A DNA stretch of 17,248 bases. Origin: a virus. Its lineage: Duplodnaviria; Heunggongvirae; Uroviricota; Caudoviricetes. Location of the stretch: IMG/VR virus record IMGVR_UViG_2778261313_000007. The stretch is one strand, 5' to 3'. Under the pieces are notes generated by a model, which saw nothing but the letters and a program-made list of their open reading frames with translations, had not been told where the DNA came from and made no database searches. Below are positions 9,093-17,248 of the stretch, one piece after another; positions within the stretch are counted from its first letter, which is position 1, and every line of letters starts with the position of its first letter. A program made the translations under genes and the position numbers.

Positions 9093-10997
9093 TTAGAACG
9101 ATGTTACCCAGCTACGGCCTCTATTTGGGCGTCTGGCGATGTTTTGACGTTGTGGTCGTGTGATTGGCTTAGTTTCTTCGATTTGCTCGTCAGATTGCGT
9201 TTCAGGAGCTTTTACGGGTTCTTCTGGTTCACGGTTCAAACTATCTTTGATGGCTTCGAGTTTTTCCCATGACATTTTATTGAGTACATGGCGAGAAGCA
9301 GCATAGGAATAAGCCAGGCAGTCGAGAGCCTCGTTTCGTTGCTGACCAACTTTTACCCAACGTGTGGTATTACCCTGCCGTTTCAACTGTTCAGAAAGCA
9401 ATTGCTCGCAATAGTCATCAGGAACGTCACCAATCTGGAAGACAGTATGAGGATCGCCATCTCTCAAGTTCCGGTTAATCATTTCACGGATCATCGTCTT
9501 AAGGTTGTTTACGCCCAGAATTTTGAGAGTAAAACCGCCCGTTCTTGTGTCCTTAGCCGGAAGGATTGGAGCATCAGCATTACTTGCGCCTTTAATGGCG
9601 CATAGGTTTTGCCACCTAGTGCAAAAACGGTAGATCACGTTTGTAGCTCGTCCGTTCGATGAGTCCACGAAAGCAGATAGCATCGGGATTCGTTCACCGG
9701 ATCGGGTATAGAATTTCGCTTTCAGGAAGTTATAAAGCTGGTCATATGCTGGTGATTCGTGGCGTTCGCAGTTCACATCATAGAATGATCGGTGATCAAC
9801 TACGCATATCCCCTTACGAGAGATACCCAGCAAGGTAGATTCCAGACGGTCTTTTTGCTGGTCAACTCCACCTACCAGAGCCAGTACATCATCAGGAATA
9901 TTGTCTAGGCTAATATCAGTTTTCAGCGTTTCCAGTTCGTCGGCTGTGCGATCTTCGTTAAGATCATCGAAGGTTTCACCGAGGACTGTATTGTAGAACG
10001 TTGCTAGTGACATATTCGCGTAGCTATCAGCAAAGTCCACCACACACGCACGGATAGAACTAAACGGAGACATAAGGCGGTTAGCATGAAAACCGATTAC
10101 TTCCGCATTTGGTTCCGTAGCAATCCATTCACCTTGAGCAACAGCACGTAGGCGATCCCCTTCTGTCCAATCAGTTTCACATGACGGGCAACGATAAACG
10201 GCAGTATCTGGATTCGGCAGTGATTTACAGTTAATCGTATGCCAATCAAAGAAAACTCTACTCCATTCCATTACGTGCTTGTGTCCGCAATGCTGGCAAA
10301 CGACATGATATTTTCTCTTATCCGAGAGTTCCCATTGTTGGTTAATCGCCCCATCACGAGCGGTTGGAGTGGAAGCAATTACGATCCTTGCATCTTCCCC
10401 GAAAGTGGTTGCGCGTTGTTCCGCTAGCTGGATCGGGTTCCCTTCGTCTGACTCATCAGCCGCATCAACTTCATCAAGAATAATCAAAGGGAGTGTTTTA
10501 CCGCGAAGATGTGACGGACTATTCAACGACATGAAATACATAAACGATCCGTTACGAAGCTGAATAATCGATGAGTTGTTAACGGCATTGCGATCTGATT
10601 TGTCGGTGATCATCGCCTTTAATTCTGGTGTTGCCTCTAATACTGGCTTCACCTTACCAGCGATCCAGCTATTCAACTCGCGGACATTCGATTGCAACAC
10701 CCCGATATTAGTAGGGTTACTCGCGATCCGATGGAAGATAATTCCGTTAAGAATCATGGTCTTACCCAACTGCGCCGAACATTTAAACACAATTTTTCTA
10801 CGGTCTTCGGTGATCGCGTCCATCATTCCACGTTGGAAGGGATGCAATTTAATTAGCGATCCGGCTTTAACACCATCGGTCGCAACTACATTAGCCTCTA
10901 CCCATTCGCTAGGTTTCATGGTTTTAGGTGGACGAATTGCAGCAGAGATATTTTTGAGAATCTTTTTTAATTTTGCCTTATTAGAAATCAGTTTCAT
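9093..10997 (-). CDS. terL: terminase large subunit (GpA-like)
   Basis: ATG 10995-10997 with GAGGGT SD, stop TAA 9093-9095. 634 aa. Deviant Walker A KCSAQLGKT, Walker B LPLIILDEVDA, Cys pair motifs CQHCGH...CPSC (zinc-ribbon-like), and a C-terminal acidic nuclease-like region. First gene of the structural operon. Confidence 0.85.
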   Translation of the reverse strand: MKLISNKAKLKKILKNISAAIRPPKTMKPSEWVEANVVATDGVKAGSLIKLHPFQRGMMDAITEDRRKIVFKCSAQLGKTMILNGIIFHRIASNPTNIGVLQSNVRELNSWIAGKVKPVLEATPELKAMITDKSDRNAVNNSSIIQLRNGSFMYFMSLNSPSHLRGKTLPLIILDEVDAADESDEGNPIQLAEQRATTFGEDARIVIASTPTARDGAINQQWELSDKRKYHVVCQHCGHKHVMEWSRVFFDWHTINCKSLPNPDTAVYRCPSCETDWTEGDRLRAVAQGEWIATEPNAEVIGFHANRLMSPFSSIRACVVDFADSYANMSLATFYNTVLGETFDDLNEDRTADELETLKTDISLDNIPDDVLALVGGVDQQKDRLESTLLGISRKGICVVDHRSFYDVNCERHESPAYDQLYNFLKAKFYTRSGERIPMLSAFVDSSNGRATNVIYRFCTRWQNLCAIKGASNADAPILPAKDTRTGGFTLKILGVNNLKTMIREMINRNLRDGDPHTVFQIGDVPDDYCEQLLSEQLKRQGNTTRWVKVGQQRNEALDCLAYSYAASRHVLNKMSWEKLEAIKDSLNREPEEPVKAPETQSDEQIEETKPITRPQRQNIARRPNRGRSWVTSF

Positions 10998-11040
10998 GTA
11001 ATTACCCTCATTACGAAATATGAAGGTATTTATTAAATTG

Positions 11041-11070
11041 TTGATATTTTGATAAATACGGTATTAAGAT
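11041..11070 (+). promoter_or_regulatory. candidate sigma70 promoter for the 11084 operon
   Basis: TTGATA at 11041-11046 followed by TTAAGA/TAAGAT-like -10 candidates at 17-18 bp. Weak -10, so low confidence. Confidence 0.3.
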
Positions 11071-11083
11071 TTAAGGAGGGTGT

Positions 11084-11680
11084 ATGCTAATTAATCAGCA
11101 AGAAAGAGATGAATTAGCCTTGTCTTGTACCGATCATGAATATCGTTTGCCAGTAAAACATAAGCACTTAAAGACCGATTACACTACATCCGGTTTTAGT
11201 CGCGAAGAAGCGAAAGAGATTTTAATCGAGTTGTATCGCGATCATGGGTATACCGATATTCACAACTTCTTTAAGAAGCATAGAACATCACATACAGAGT
11301 TTCGGAGAGTCCGAGATTGGTTTGATTTTGATATCAAGCGTTATTATCGCATTGATGACGGTCCTATCTATCGGTTGCAGTGGAAGCCGATCCGAGAAGT
11401 GTTGAAACAGAAGAGATTGAATCACGCTATTACACGCTATCGTAACGAGGCTTTCAAGAAAGGCTATGGTGATACAAGGGAACTATTCGTTGAACTCGCT
11501 AACGTGAAGTACAGCCACTATTACAACGATCCTAAATCCTTCTTTGAAGTGCTTCGCAAGGTTGATATAAGTCGGGGTACATACTATTCACGGTTGAAGA
11601 AGTACGGGATTAAGGCAGAGTTCTTTATGTCGGTTGACGATGGAGAACTTTTTCCGATAAAATGTAAGTCCTCTAAATAA
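11084..11680 (+). CDS. DNA-binding protein with C-terminal helix-turn-helix (resolvase/IS-type HTH-like); regulator or possible small terminase
   Basis: ATG 11084 preceded by AAGGAGGG SD. 198 aa. C-terminal DISRGTYYSRLKKYGIK matches the HTH-like motif shared with the two small proteins at 11715 and 14977. Divergent from terL. Confidence 0.55.
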   Translation: MLINQQERDELALSCTDHEYRLPVKHKHLKTDYTTSGFSREEAKEILIELYRDHGYTDIHNFFKKHRTSHTEFRRVRDWFDFDIKRYYRIDDGPIYRLQWKPIREVLKQKRLNHAITRYRNEAFKKGYGDTRELFVELANVKYSHYYNDPKSFFEVLRKVDISRGTYYSRLKKYGIKAEFFMSVDDGELFPIKCKSSK

Positions 11681-11714
11681 AAGTGAACATTCACTTTAAT
11701 TTGGAGAAATGACT

Positions 11715-11942
11715 ATGACTACTAAAACTACTCGCGGTCGTCCTGCCCGTTTTAACGCTGAACAAATGGCTGATATTGCCTACGCTTATTATACAGCGGA
11801 TCGTGGTAAGGAAGCGAAAGAACAGATTCTTAGTGAACATGGGATTTCAATTGCCCAATTCTATAAGAATATGAAGAAGTTAGACATTAAATTCTATGTT
11901 CAGATCGGTGATGGTCAGATCGTAGAAGCAACAGGTTTTTGA
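11715..11942 (+). CDS. small DNA-binding protein (AT-hook-like RGRP N-terminus plus HTH-like C-terminus)
   Basis: ORF-track ORF starts at 11709, but the GGAG SD at 11703-11706 is better spaced for the second ATG at 11715 (MTTKTTRGRPAR...). Motif GISIAQFYKNMKKLDIK is paralogous to 14977..15159. Followed by a strong terminator. Confidence 0.45.
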   Translation: MTTKTTRGRPARFNAEQMADIAYAYYTADRGKEAKEQILSEHGISIAQFYKNMKKLDIKFYVQIGDGQIVEATGF

Positions 11943-11957
11943 GTTTTGATTCTCTTT

Positions 11958-11981
11958 GCCACTCTTCGGAGTGGCTTTTTT
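11958..11981 (+). terminator. rho-independent terminator ending the 11084-11942 operon
   Basis: GCCACUC-UUCG-GAGUGGC followed by UUUUUU. Confidence 0.7.
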
Positions 11982-12056
11982 GTATCTATAGGGTTGTCCA
12001 AAACGCCATCGGCGAGTTGGTGGAAGATGGCGCGAAAAGTCGCGTGATGTAGGTAT

Positions 12057-13734: not shown

Positions 13735-13934
13735 AGTGGAAATCCTCTAAAAGAAAGTGAATCAATCTAATATTATTTATAAAGAGAAAATTCTTGTTAT
13801 TATGAAAGGTGATTGTATTCAGTCGGGCAAAGCCCTCCTTCATAGATTTTGAATAAATCATCATCAAAACGAAGAAGTATCTTTAGAATATAAGAATCTT
13901 TCTTTTGGAGAAATAATAATCAGGAAGCAATTTG

Positions 13935-13963
13935 GCAACCGAAGGTTGCAATCCCGAAGGGAT
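13935..13963 (-). other. tandem UUCG-type hairpins
   Basis: Two adjacent inverted repeats: GCAACC-GAA-GGTTGC (13935-13949) and ATCCC-GAA-GGGAT (13951-13963). On the minus strand both read as C(UUCG)G tetraloop hairpins. Confidence 0.4.
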
Positions 13964-14089
13964 AACCAATACCTTTCTAGAAAGTGATTGTTACTCACTT
14001 CGTTCGTTTACTAGAATCAGTTAGTAACTAGTATTAAATCCCTTTCTGAGAAAATCCTTTCAAAAGCGAGTGAACGCCGTAGGTGTGAA

Positions 14090-14169
14090 CGTGAGCGAAG
14101 CGAACTATCCAATCCCTTTCGAATCCTGCTTGCAGGTCTTAGAAGGTGTTGATGGGCGCTTCGCGCACG
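14090..14169. repeat. extended imperfect dyad symmetry centred on a CCTGC-TT-GCAGG palindrome
   Basis: Arms CGTGAGCGAAGCG (14090-14102) and CGCTTCGCGCACG (14157-14169) are reverse complements with one mismatch. The midpoint coincides with the palindrome at 14125-14136. Partial symmetry extends out to about 14073-14180. Confidence 0.6.
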
Positions 14170-14310
14170 GCTACGCCGTATTCTTTTTGCGAGATCTTTC
14201 TTGAACGTAGTGAGAGAAAACGAGCAAAAAGGAGAACGTTAGTTCGAATTTTATATTCTATGGTCTGTGTGGTGAAATGTCTTTCAAGATCATACACTTA
14301 TGAGATTGAA

Positions 14311-14407
14311 GTGTAGGGTTAGTGTAGGTGTGTAGGTGTTATAGTGTAGGTTTACTGGCTAGTGTAGTGTAGGCCAATCCCTTTAAAGCGTAGGTTTGTA
14401 GTGTAGG
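14311..14407. repeat. cluster of seven direct GTGTAGG(T) repeats (iteron-like)
   Basis: Six exact GTGTAGG copies starting at 14311, 14322, 14330, 14344, 14367 and 14401, plus the variant GCGTAGG at 14388. All in the same orientation, 8-23 bp apart, immediately left of an AT-rich tract. Confidence 0.7.
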
Positions 14408-14413
14408 TTTTTC

Positions 14414-14430
14414 ATCAAAAATTTTGATAG
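14414..14430. repeat. 15-bp palindrome ATCAAAAATTTTGAT (operator-like), copy 1
   Basis: Perfect palindrome at 14414-14428. The 15-mer CAAAAATTTTGATAG (14416-14430) recurs exactly at 14565-14579. Confidence 0.6.
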
Positions 14431-14515
14431 AAAATTCTTGTATATTATTTAACCAGAAAATCACCAAAAACCGCTGTAAATGCATGATTTAAAAAGAATT
14501 ATCAAAAGGTCGTCG

Positions 14516-14524
14516 TGCTATAAT
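14516..14524 (+). promoter_or_regulatory. extended -10 promoter candidate
   Basis: TGcTATAAT (TG at 14516-14517, TATAAT at 14519-14524). The -35 is weak. Confidence 0.4.
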
Positions 14525-14564
14525 AGGTTATAAAGGTTGATAATCGTTATCCGCCATTTTCACA

Positions 14565-14579
14565 CAAAAATTTTGATAG
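14565..14579. repeat. copy 2 of the CAAAAATTTTGATAG element
   Basis: Exact 15-nt direct repeat of 14416-14430, lying about 25 bp upstream of the -35 of the strong plus-strand promoter. Confidence 0.6.
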
Positions 14580-14604
14580 TCATTTCTCGCTTAGATCAAG
14601 TGTA

Positions 14605-14633
14605 TTGACAACTATCAAGGATTATTTTATACT
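14605..14633 (+). promoter_or_regulatory. near-consensus sigma70 promoter
   Basis: TTGACA (14605-14610), a 17-nt spacer, then TATACT (14628-14633), directed toward the 14977-16529 genes. Confidence 0.6.
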
Positions 14634-14921
14634 TTTTCTCGTTGGTAGGGGTTGAAATTTTCGAAACAATCCCCATATTGATGATACGCAAGATTTTTTC
14701 GTGTATAAATACATGCATGAAAATGATTGTTCACTTCTGAAAATCCCCTGATTCACTGTTAATTCATACAGCACTGGCTAAACATACAGTACTTATTCGA
14801 TTGAATAATGTACGAATTGATTAATTATTAATCTTCTCTTTAGCAATTCGTGCTCCCACTGATCGGATATACAGTGGTTTTACAGGGTTTTTCGAAAAAC
14901 ATTTTATAAATAGAATTGTTC

Positions 14922-14941
14922 AGAGCAAAAAGCTCTTTTTT
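14922..14941 (+). terminator. weak hairpin plus T-run just upstream of the 14977 RBS (attenuator or leader terminator candidate)
   Basis: AGAGC-AAAAA-GCTCT followed by five to six T residues. Short AU-rich stem, so low confidence. Confidence 0.3.
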
Positions 14942-14976
14942 AAGAAATCATTATTCCAGATTTAGGAGGATATAAG

Positions 14977-15159
14977 ATGGCACGACCTGTTAAGTTCACT
15001 CGTGAAATCGTTTTAGAAATGGCAAAGCGTTATTTTGAACTGACACCTGATGTAGTGATGGGTGAATGGTTTAAAGGTGAAGGTATTGATCAATCAACCT
15101 TCCACAAACTCTTAAAGAAGTATGACATTAAAGTAAAGATTACCGCCGAGGTCTGGTAA
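14977..15159 (+). CDS. small DNA-binding protein (HTH-like), paralog of 11715..11942
   Basis: ATG 14977 preceded by AGGAGGA SD. 60 aa. N-terminal ARPVKF and C-terminal GIDQSTFHKLLKKYDIK align with the other two HTH-like proteins. Confidence 0.5.
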   Translation: MARPVKFTREIVLEMAKRYFELTPDVVMGEWFKGEGIDQSTFHKLLKKYDIKVKITAEVW

Positions 15160-15203
15160 TAACCTTTCACTGAGAATTATATGATGGCTTTAAAAATAAA
15201 AAA

Positions 15204-15231
15204 GCCTCCCTGTTGGCGCAAGGAGGCTTTT
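15204..15231 (+). terminator. terminator-like hairpin between 14977..15159 and the acidic-protein gene
   Basis: GCCTCC (15204-15209), a 12-nt loop, GGAGGC (15222-15227), then TTTT. Confidence 0.45.
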
Positions 15232-15275: not shown

Positions 15276-16271
15276 ATGAAAAATTCTAAGCGCATTACCT
15301 TCAACATGTTTATTAAATCCAACGGCAAACTGAACATCACTGTCATGGAAGGTAAAGCAAGCAAACAAGACAAATCCTTTGAAGTAGTATCAGGTAAGAC
15401 TCTGACCGAAATGCGTCAGAATGCTGGCATCAAAGACGGTGCTGAATGGCAGATCACCAACCGTTTCGACAAACGTCACGTTAAACCTACACTGGTAGAA
15501 GGTGAATCCGTTTATTGCTTCGCTCGTGCTGTTAAAGCTGATGAAACTTACTATCTGGCTGTTGTTAAAACTGCTTCCGGCTTCCGTGCTGTAATGCATC
15601 ACAAGAGCAAACGTAACGAATACGGCGTAGAGACCCAGGAAGTCGCAAAACGCTTCCGTACTGTTGCTACCGAATCCACTGTAAAGGATGTTTCTGGTAC
15701 TGTTAACACCGCTAAAGGCGGTTCCTTCTACAACCACGCATTACAGGTTACTTCCTCCTTCTTCTGCAAAAAAGAAGCACAGAAAGAAGTTTCTCCGGTA
15801 GTAGTTGAAGAAGTTAAAGAAGAAGTTGCAGTGGTTGAATATTCCGAAGTTGAAGCACTGAAAGCACGCATCGCTGAACTGGAAGCTGAAAACGCATCTC
15901 TGAAAGCTGAACTGGCAGCACAGGAAACCACTTTCGAAGTAGCAGCGGTTGAAGTTGAAGCAGTTGAAGAAAAATCCATTGATGAAGAACTGGAAGAACT
16001 CCTTAACTATCGCTGGGGTGTTGTTGCAGAAGTAGAACAAGAAGTTGCTCCGGTAGTTGTTCCGGTTGAAGTTGAAGAAGAATCCGCACCTGTTACTAAC
16101 TTTGAATCCCTGCGCAATAACTTTATGGCTAAATTCAAAACCACTTGGGAAGATACCGAAGAAGAACAAGAAGAGATTGAAGTAAACGAAGACGAGATCC
16201 GCGAAGCACAGATGGCACTGCATGACGCTATCTACGACACCAACTACAGCGCCTACGCATACGCAGCTTAA
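15276..16271 (+). CDS. two-domain protein: basic N-terminal domain plus acidic coiled-coil C-terminal half; high-expression codon usage
   Basis: ATG 15276 with AGGAG SD. 331 aa. The C-terminal half is dominated by E/V/A with heptad-like EALKARIAELEAENASLKAELAAQE. Codons are strongly biased to CTG/CGT/GGT/GCT/TTC/AAC, unlike the rest of the window. Confidence 0.65.
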   Translation: MKNSKRITFNMFIKSNGKLNITVMEGKASKQDKSFEVVSGKTLTEMRQNAGIKDGAEWQITNRFDKRHVKPTLVEGESVYCFARAVKADETYYLAVVKTASGFRAVMHHKSKRNEYGVETQEVAKRFRTVATESTVKDVSGTVNTAKGGSFYNHALQVTSSFFCKKEAQKEVSPVVVEEVKEEVAVVEYSEVEALKARIAELEAENASLKAELAAQETTFEVAAVEVEAVEEKSIDEELEELLNYRWGVVAEVEQEVAPVVVPVEVEEESAPVTNFESLRNNFMAKFKTTWEDTEEEQEEIEVNEDEIREAQMALHDAIYDTNYSAYAYAA

Positions 16272-16286
16272 TAGAGAGGTGAATTT

Positions 16287-16529
16287 ATGATGAATCAAAA
16301 CAAAGAATTTCTGGGTAATCTGATGTTAGAAATTACCAAAATGAAAGAAAGAATGGTAGCGATGGAATCAGAGATTAAAACACTTAAAGCTGATAATAAG
16401 GCGTTGAGAAAGTCCTTAAAGCTGATTGATGAGACTAATGCGGTTATGATGGATCATGTATTCCCTGAGTGGCGAAATGAAACTAAACCTACACAACATA
16501 AGAAACTTACACTTCGAATTGTTGCATAA
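16287..16529 (+). CDS. small coiled-coil protein
   Basis: ATG 16287 (tandem ATG ATG) preceded by GAGAGGTGA. 80 aa, helical and charged (KERMVAMESEIKTLKADNKALRKSLK). Stop TAA 16527-16529 directly followed by a hairpin. Confidence 0.45.
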   Translation: MMNQNKEFLGNLMLEITKMKERMVAMESEIKTLKADNKALRKSLKLIDETNAVMMDHVFPEWRNETKPTQHKKLTLRIVA

Positions 16530-17186: not shown

Positions 17187-17248
17187 TTAAGGGTTGTGGT
17201 ATTACGCCTGATATGATTTAACGTGCCGATGAATTACTCTCACGATAA

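Follow-up and report, generated by a model that had tools for sequence, protein, structure and literature searches.

Which protein reads an array of short direct repeats in the early control region of an Escherichia coli prophage, and what does this reading accomplish? The stretch of DNA analyzed here (the window; 17,248 nucleotides, part of IMG/VR contig 3300029858_000365) belongs to a prophage of approximately 35.1 kb and carries seven same-orientation repeats at positions 14311–14407 (+ strand), which an earlier note on this sequence had proposed to be a replication origin, a packaging site, or stacked sites for small helix-turn-helix (HTH) proteins encoded nearby. We found that the array is conserved, under selection, and variable by type, and that its type is matched to the N-terminal domain (N-domain) of a 331-amino-acid (aa) orphan protein encoded downstream (15276–16271, + strand). 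Because the N-domain type covaries perfectly with the array type, we infer that this protein binds the array, and it is very probable that the repeats are the recognition site of its N-domain. Array and protein form an exchangeable specificity module of the early control region. As to purpose, our leading reading, to which we assign a probability of roughly 45%, is that the repeats are the iterons of a replication origin, at which the 331-aa protein would act as a short-lived initiator while also regulating its own synthesis.

The earlier note had described six exact copies and one variant of GTGTAGG with irregular spacing of 8–23 bp in non-coding DNA, bordered on the right by an AT-rich block, and sequence and counts bear out this description. 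Exact copies begin on the + strand at 14311, 14322, 14330, 14344, 14367, and 14401, the variant copy GCGTAGG occupies 14390–14396, and the start-to-start spacings are 11, 8, 14, 23, 23, and 11 bp. There is also an eighth, partial, overlapping copy (GTGTAGT, 14362–14368), and the true repeat unit is longer than 7 bp, approximately TAGTGTAGGT(T/G)T. Across both strands of the whole window GTGTAGG occurs 9 times against 1.11 expected, a count reached by 0/200 dinucleotide shuffles of the window. Directly right of the array, the block at 14408–14470 has 19% GC versus 41.7% for the window and is among its most AT-rich 60-mers.

The array lies within a region of 1242 bp (13735–14976) that lacks any open reading frame (ORF) of at least 60 aa and is overlapped by short ones of 40–56 aa only. 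The three of 50–56 aa gave no match in a Pfam search, and the Prokaryotic Genome Annotation Pipeline (PGAP) places nothing in the equivalent region of a 97% identical RefSeq prophage. Moreover, type-A relatives (see below) carry a 22-bp indel within the array, which excludes a conserved reading frame, and therefore the array is not coding. Scans of the array region with Rfam (E up to 1) and for tRNAs yielded chance-level matches only. A pattern scan of IMG/VR for GTGTAGGTGTGTAGGTG recovered the source contig and unrelated simple repeats and nothing else. Elsewhere in the phage genome, neither a second array nor dispersed sites were found beyond chance; each phage genome has one cluster, which fits a unique cis-acting site rather than a dispersed regulon.

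For comparison, 13 relatives were taken from IMG/VR (large terminase subunit, TerL, 94–98% identical) and further loci from RefSeq and Logan/NCBI assemblies. All have a common gene order, namely a 155-aa gene (− strand), 1.2–1.4 kb of non-coding DNA, a 60-aa gene (+ strand), and a gene for a protein of ~320–340 aa (+ strand), and a same-direction repeat array occurs at this position in every one of the more than 24 related prophages. The relatives' arrays comprise 5–14 copies, and the array sequence is of four types: TAGTGTAGG, TAGTGCAGG, TTCAGGGGCAAAA, and (A/G)CGGGGA. The conservation of the repeats in related genomes, which had been put forward as a check, was thus found for the position of the array, whereas the repeat sequence itself is replaced from type to type. 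Type A (TAGTGTAGG, 7–10 copies) is present in the window and in L004, L009, L010, L034, L040, L041, L046, and L048; type A′ (TTAGTGCAGGG, 5–6 copies) in L039; type B (TTCAGGGGCAAAA, with 4–9 exact CAGGGGCAA cores, 6–9 in most loci) in L002, L003, L005–L008, L011, L013, L037, L038, and L043; and type C ((A/G)CGGGGA, 12–14 copies) in L012, L035, and L036.

In every locus examined (>24, four types), the array type matches the type of the N-domain of the ~330-aa protein encoded downstream, with protein family F15 accompanying A, F7 accompanying B, and F62 accompanying C. The correspondence is also graded. The N-domain of L039 is 46% identical to that of type A, and its repeat is TAGTGCAGG instead of TAGTGTAGG, a single-base difference in the 7-bp GTGTAGG core; the N-domain of L040 is 77% identical to type A, and the type-A repeat is kept. 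The 331-aa ORF was missed among the partner candidates of the earlier note, although it is the protein that covaries with the array.

Linkage alone is insufficient to account for this match, because the two partners lie in separate islands within a region whose parts recombine independently. BLAST similarity between the window and type B or C relatives stops at 14069 and resumes at 14410, and this array island (14070–14410) is separated by the conserved 60-aa gene from the gene island (15279–16525); the 331-aa gene starts 870 bp downstream of the array. For the "middle" segment between the islands there are at least three versions, and these are shuffled relative to array type. The C-terminal domain of the ~330-aa protein reassorts independently of the N-domain, as do the alleles of the 155-aa gene (55–99% identity), the flanking genes, and the integration sites.

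Selection on the repeats is apparent from the most divergent type-A pair, L004 and L040, in which mismatches number 0/42 in the cores and 12/51 in the spacers (Fisher p = 4e-4). Copy number varies in 22-bp units, as might be expected of functionless repeats that arise by neutral slippage, or of a partition centromere of the plasmid type (parC/parS-like), since parC of R1-type plasmids consists of arrays of 10–11-bp direct repeats in helical phase. However, neutrality is contradicted both by the conservation of cores relative to spacers and by the retention of the array at the same position in every relative despite complete sequence replacement. Partition is at odds with the genomic setting: the 66 places found across complete E. 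coli genomes all lie on chromosomes and none on a plasmid, a serine integrase is present, and no gene for a ParA/ParM-type nucleoside triphosphatase (NTPase) exists in the prophage. We therefore regard either explanation as highly improbable.

The same comparison bears on the HTH proteins named by the earlier note as possible partners, which have lengths of 198 aa (11084–11680), 77 aa (11709–11942), and 60 aa (14977–15159, + strand, between the array and the 331-aa gene). These three proteins have a common small HTH-like domain, and the 60-aa gene adjoins the non-coding region, so that stacked sites for one of them were a natural proposal. However, the 60-aa protein is 100% identical between the window (type A) and L002, L006, and L008 (type B), which of its three alleles a phage carries bears no relation to array type, and the region 11000–11988 that contains the 198-aa and 77-aa genes is 85–95% identical in all types. 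Because a conserved protein cannot read four unrelated repeats, we rejected all three, and this assignment is very unlikely to be correct. The domain itself (...F[YH]K.LKKY.IK...) occurs in the 60-aa and 77-aa proteins and in each half of the 198-aa protein, and in the two shorter proteins it is preceded by an R-G-R-P / A-R-P-x-K-F arm near the N-terminus. Judged by these motifs, the three proteins appear to make up a paralogous family of Hin-like HTH proteins.

A packaging site deserved similar scrutiny, given that the phage has a lambda-type gpA large terminase (9093–10997, − strand), that phages with gpA-type terminases use repeated sites for the small terminase subunit (TerS) adjoining cosN, and that the layout of the 331-aa protein, with an N-terminal DNA-binding domain, a coiled coil, and a C-terminal tail, is superficially TerS-like. 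In this reading the repeats would be a cosB/pac recognition array. However, a separate and genuine TerS is encoded by an ORF of 184 aa on the − strand, a Nu1-like protein that matches phrog_57 ("terminase small subunit") over its full length with an E value of 1.5e-11; the last 22 bases of its gene lie at the right end of the window (17227–17248), and the whole gene is found in L034 (37925–38479, −). Alleles of the TerS HTH region are independent of array type, in that L007 (B) equals L010 (A) and L001 (A) differs from L010 (A), and for this reason the proposed small-terminase array was discarded. In addition, TerL is 94–98% identical across all array types while the C-terminus of the 331-aa protein is variable, and the array is about 3.3 kb from both the start of TerL and the end of TerS, with opposite-strand genes between. 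We judge a packaging function to be extremely doubtful; cos probably lies beyond the window, in a gap of 357 bp located upstream of the TerS gene. The TerS gene lies 6.2 kb from that of the large terminase, with the whole early/regulatory region, partly on the opposite strand, between them, which is an unusual layout for a phage with a gpA-type terminase.

The protein that remains as the partner of the array consists of an N-domain (approximately residues 1–175, encoded by 15276–15800), a coiled coil (approximately 189–247), an acidic region, and a short C-terminal helix, and this one architecture is common to the four types at only about 16–26% identity. The N-domain is predicted to form a beta meander with a predicted local distance difference test (pLDDT) score of 60–80; the AlphaFold model of the whole protein has a pLDDT of 53, and fold searches with it returned only noise. 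The protein has no match above threshold in Pfam, PHROG, or NCBIfam and no meaningful match among PDB sequences. An exhaustive HMMER search of 1.84 billion representative proteins with the N-domain identified only three real relatives, and tblastn searches found no relatives of the type-B N-domain in PLSDB plasmids or of the type-C N-domain in isolated phages. The function of the protein is therefore not assignable by homology, and by these searches it appears to be an orphan, essentially without relatives outside this E. coli/Shigella prophage lineage.

At its C-terminus the 331-aa protein ends in ...NYSAYAYAA (16245–16271), and most versions end in ...YAYAA, ...RRAA, ...RKAA, ...DFAA, or ...GLAA (for example, those of L012, L035, L037, L039, and L040). 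The 80-aa coiled-coil protein encoded next in the operon (16287–16529, + strand) is found, among the first 13 loci, only in type-A phages; it ends in ...LTLRIVA (16503–16529), and the downstream proteins of other types have the tails ...LRLVA and ...FRLVA. An ssrA-type C-terminal tail is a ClpXP degron, and the tails described here resemble ssrA-type degrons (YALAA / LVA), so both operon products may be deliberately short-lived.

Origin function for the array is reached by elimination and by analogy. No replication gene is recognizable in the whole 35-kb prophage, whose genes other than those for structure, lysis, and integration are all orphans. An initiator should therefore be sought among these orphans, of which the 331-aa protein alone has a DNA target with multiple sites. 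We envisage that, after induction, the strong early promoter at 14605 would express the genes for the 60-aa, 331-aa, and 80-aa proteins. Copies of the 331-aa protein would load side by side on the phased repeats and be held together by the coiled coil, and the loaded protein would open the adjacent tract of 19% GC and recruit the host replisome. The ssrA-like tail would keep the protein short-lived, like lambda O, and the same binding would autoregulate the operon, as in iteron plasmids. Autoregulation is suggested by sites that, in relatives, sit just upstream of operon promoters; together with an inverted pair of sites in L040, these recall Rep autoregulation in iteron plasmids. AT-rich DNA beside or between the sites is a feature not only of the window but also of L041, L039, and types B and C; spacers of this composition are enclosed by sites in L012, L039, L041, and type B. 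It is conceivable, although we hold this more tentatively than the origin function itself, that the 331-aa protein and its allelic counterparts constitute a new family of phage replication initiators acting at a new kind of origin between divergent early promoters. Members of this family would combine a beta-rich N-domain that reads the DNA sequence with a coiled coil and an ssrA-like degron of their own, and such an origin would consist of helically phased 9–12-bp direct repeats, in a lineage without any other replication gene.

Several observations weigh against an origin. Genes for a helicase, primase, or loader are absent from the prophage, and the 331-aa protein is not a member of the known initiator families (Phage_rep_O, Rep_3, RepA_N, or helicase/primase-type Rep), nor does it have homology or fold similarity to initiators. 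No DnaA box (TTWTNCACA), integration host factor (IHF) site (WATCAANNNNTTR), or GATC cluster is conserved in six versions of the non-coding region; origins of the plasmid type usually have such host-factor sites, although they are not required. In most type-B phages, as seen in the alt-middle loci, the right flank of the array is not markedly AT-rich. The sites in the arrays examined show approximate helical phasing (period 10.8–11.4 bp, R 0.66–0.86), but this is only marginally above random: the best period of the window array, 11.4 bp (R = 0.83), is just above the 95th percentile of random placements. Binding of the protein to the array is itself deduced from covariation. The occurrence of four specificities in near-identical backbones looks like the diversifying selection of immunity modules. 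Finally, in L041, L039, and alt-middle loci a cognate site lies 11–16 nt upstream of a TTGACA-17-TATACT/TATAAT promoter, which a transcription factor explains equally well. Of the origin proposed by the earlier note, the AT-rich tract and a cognate protein have been found, whereas homology to known initiators and DnaA or IHF sites have not; it is the leading reading, unproven.

The placement of sites near promoters leads to the main rival, according to which the 331-aa protein is a regulator (an activator, an autorepressor, or an immunity-type repressor) and the array is an operator or upstream activating sequence of divergent early promoters, without direct involvement in replication. Both readings may hold at once. 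The array lies between two overlapping leftward promoter-like sites (− strand, 14248–14283) and the rightward promoters, and, besides the promoter-proximal sites mentioned above, relatives have one site in a promoter spacer and, in L040, the inverted pair CCTACAC-N18-GTGTAGG downstream of a strong promoter. Several specificities in near-identical phages are typical of immunity modules, and direct-repeat operators and tandem activator sites are known, for example from the phi105 repressor and PhoB/OmpR. However, 7–14 same-orientation copies at a single locus are unusual for an operator, and 198 bp separate the window array from the canonical promoter closest to it. The palindromes at 14414–14428 and 14565–14579, which are invariant across array types, are better operator candidates. 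The ssrA-like degron and the position in the early operon, behind a strong promoter with conserved palindromes on its flanks, suit a lytic-phase product better than a maintenance repressor, and the N-domain, a predicted beta meander, has no recognized DNA-binding fold (HTH, ribbon-helix-helix, or winged helix). A purely regulatory role would also leave the phage without a candidate origin or initiator. No CI-type repressor is recognizable in the prophage. On balance we consider this switch possible but less than probable.

A close parallel to the proposed origin read by the 331-aa protein is provided by the lambdoid ori/O systems (lambda, phi80, 82, 21, and P22). There, as we propose here from covariation, repeats are bound by the N-domain of an initiator of ~300 aa, the repeat sequence and N-domain covary between otherwise similar phages, and, as in the window, an AT-rich tract lies beside the repeats. 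In both cases a small Cro-like gene and a terminator precede the gene within an early operon: the early layout of lambda is PR-cro-tR1-O, and here a strong early promoter is followed by a small HTH protein, a terminator, and the putative DNA-binding protein. Lambda O is a labile protein and a substrate of ClpXP, and similar lability is predicted for the 331-aa protein, which like O would have separable domains for DNA reading and oligomerization as well as a degron, although the two are not homologous. Indeed, the 331-aa protein has neither sequence nor fold similarity to O. Further differences are that the array has 7–14 direct copies of a 9–12-bp unit rather than four 19-bp internally symmetric iterons, that it lies upstream of the operon rather than within the initiator gene, and that no P-like helicase loader is present.

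Iteron plasmids (P1 oriR/RepA, F oriS/RepE, pSC101, and R6K) offer a second comparison, in that their direct repeats likewise recur at intervals close to 11 or 22 bp, adjoin an AT-rich region (as in the window), and lie upstream of the gene whose product binds them. Some sites lie at this gene's own promoter, suggesting autoregulation, and an inverted half-site pair exists in one relative (L040). In contrast, the 331-aa protein is not a Rep_3/winged-helix initiator, the present locus has no DnaA boxes, GATC clusters, or second (incA-type) control array, and the element is an integrated prophage. The origins of Staphylococcus aureus pathogenicity islands (SaPIs) and other phage-inducible chromosomal islands with an island-specific Rep are alike in that short iterons flank an AT-rich spacer (as in L012, L039, and L041) and that iteron specificity is matched to the protein encoded alongside. 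However, the SaPI Rep is a helicase whereas the 331-aa protein has no NTPase domain, and ori is downstream of rep in SaPIs but upstream here. Direct-repeat operators (those of the Bacillus phage phi105 repressor and of PhoB/OmpR) likewise have asymmetric same-orientation sites near promoters with a periodicity of ~11 bp, but they comprise 2–6 sites read by HTH or winged-helix proteins, whereas here 7–14 sites are paired with an orphan protein that combines a beta-rich domain, a coiled coil, and an ssrA-like degron.

Type-C phages differ from the others in having a tandem pair of such genes (F62 and F63), whose products of 333 aa each share this architecture (L012, reverse complement (rc) 16351–18381; L035, 3362–5410; L036, 3577–5607). 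Their array forms two clusters around a 40-bp AT-rich spacer, and the two proteins may serve two sub-motifs. In the alt-middle type-B phages L002, L003, L006, L008, L011, and L013, two or three A-type GTGTAGG sites are kept at about 875–925 of the non-coding region (rc orientation), the third being degenerate (ATGTAGG) in L002 and L006, although no A-type protein is encoded. These sites surround two tandem consensus promoters (TTGACA-17-TATAAT), with one site within a promoter spacer, and are either relics of recombination or a route by which a co-resident type-A phage could exert cross-regulation.

The remainder of the control region contains additional signals. The left part of the type-specific island (14070–14310, + strand) holds the leftward promoter-like sites and a structured, GC-rich element. 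The latter (14040–14192) is predicted to fold on the + strand (z of −3.9 versus −1.2 for the − strand, by comparison with shuffled sequences) and ends in a terminator-like hairpin with a T-run (14167–14188). Types B and C have an analogous hairpin and T-run left of the array with a different stem sequence. The 3′ half of the element is type-specific, and this predicted structure may represent a small RNA or an attenuator located just left of the array.

To the right, the AT-rich block contains a TTGATA hexamer (14424–14429) and a perfect 15-nt palindrome, ATCAAAAATTTTGAT (14414–14428); a partial second copy of the latter, CAAAAATTTTGATAG, is found 149 bp away (14565–14579). The block is kept beside type A, B, and C arrays in relatives with the "standard middle," whereas "alt-middle" relatives have other sequence in its place. 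Both palindromes flank promoter-like sequences, including the strong promoter of the early operon, and are conserved whatever the array type; they resemble operators to which a conserved dimeric repressor would bind. A search among the relatives for an ORF family covarying with the middle segment type found none, and therefore no candidate repressor is assignable to the palindromes. Between them, an extended −10 element (TGCTATAAT) is present at about 14516–14524. The near-consensus sigma-70 promoter at 14605–14633 (+ strand; TTGACA-17-TATACT, 11/12 consensus matches) is kept in all standard-middle relatives and is predicted to drive the operon of the 60-aa, 331-aa, and 80-aa genes. A terminator-like hairpin with a 13-bp stem (15200–15231) separates the first two of these genes. 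Profiles of GC skew follow gene orientation only and are uninformative for an origin.

The strong promoter and the 60-aa gene are separated by a leader of 335 nt that is predicted to be structured (z of −3.6) and is better conserved than the neighboring genes (14640–14945, + strand). It includes a 19-nt motif, CTCTTTAGCAATTCGTGCT (14836–14854), that is present in 13/13 full-length IMG/VR loci searched (L001–L013), also where the middle segment is different, and twice in L039; it is absent only from L014, an incomplete locus. At the other end of the non-coding region, 85 bp (13839–13925) share 75–80% identity with intergenic repeats of RB49-like (Krischvirus) phages of the T4 type. This segment, which is unrelated to the array, may correspond to the promoter-early stem-loop cassettes of the RB49 group.

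The prophage splits hicB and has a large serine recombinase gene at its far end; in L034 (4566–4685 and 39850–40161), hicA is intact beside the truncated hicB. Other members (L040, L043, and L048) occupy a second integration site beside PHP and 2-hydroxyacid-dehydrogenase genes. The prophage was found in 63 of 5426 complete E. coli genomes (about 1%), and carriers include the O55:H7 strain DEC5A and pig isolates with enterotoxigenic E. coli (ETEC) strain designations. Decay of the module is evident in two cases: a frameshift splits the 331-aa gene of E. coli ETEC1739 (L041, 2337–3333), and in strain 14EC029 (L042, 2402–3564) the non-coding region together with the 5′ portion of the gene has given way to an IS3 element. 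In addition to the large terminase, the window encodes a lambda-family portal, a protease-capsid fusion, a tail fiber, and a Rha/Ant-like protein.

No isolated phage or plasmid is close to this prophage. A megablast search of the region against INPHARED phages gave no match, a distant blastn search of the region gave only the 13839–13925 similarity, and the closest TerL identity to isolated phages is 43%. Because TerL is only about 28–31% identical to sequences in PLSDB plasmids, there is no phage-plasmid relative, and searches of GTDB representative genomes with the 331-aa protein and with TerL yielded no relative. A literature search for an E. coli prophage integrated in hicB found nothing relevant, and, as we found no paper describing it, we consider the lineage undescribed.

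The logic of a matched array and protein that are swapped as a unit is classical, being known from lambdoid ori/O systems and iteron plasmids, whereas the protein family and the array design described here are undescribed. Whatever its function, the module provides four natural protein–site specificities on a common scaffold and hence a system in which the reading of DNA by a beta-rich domain can be tested directly. If our assignments are true, the four specificities (TAGTGTAGG, TAGTGCAGG, TTCAGGGGCAAAA, and CGGGGA) represent a ready-made orthogonal set, and the four protein–site pairs are a possible source of orthogonal DNA-binding parts. If the 331-aa protein is an initiator, it would define a new family of origin-binding proteins and would explain how a 35-kb temperate phage replicates without a known replication gene.

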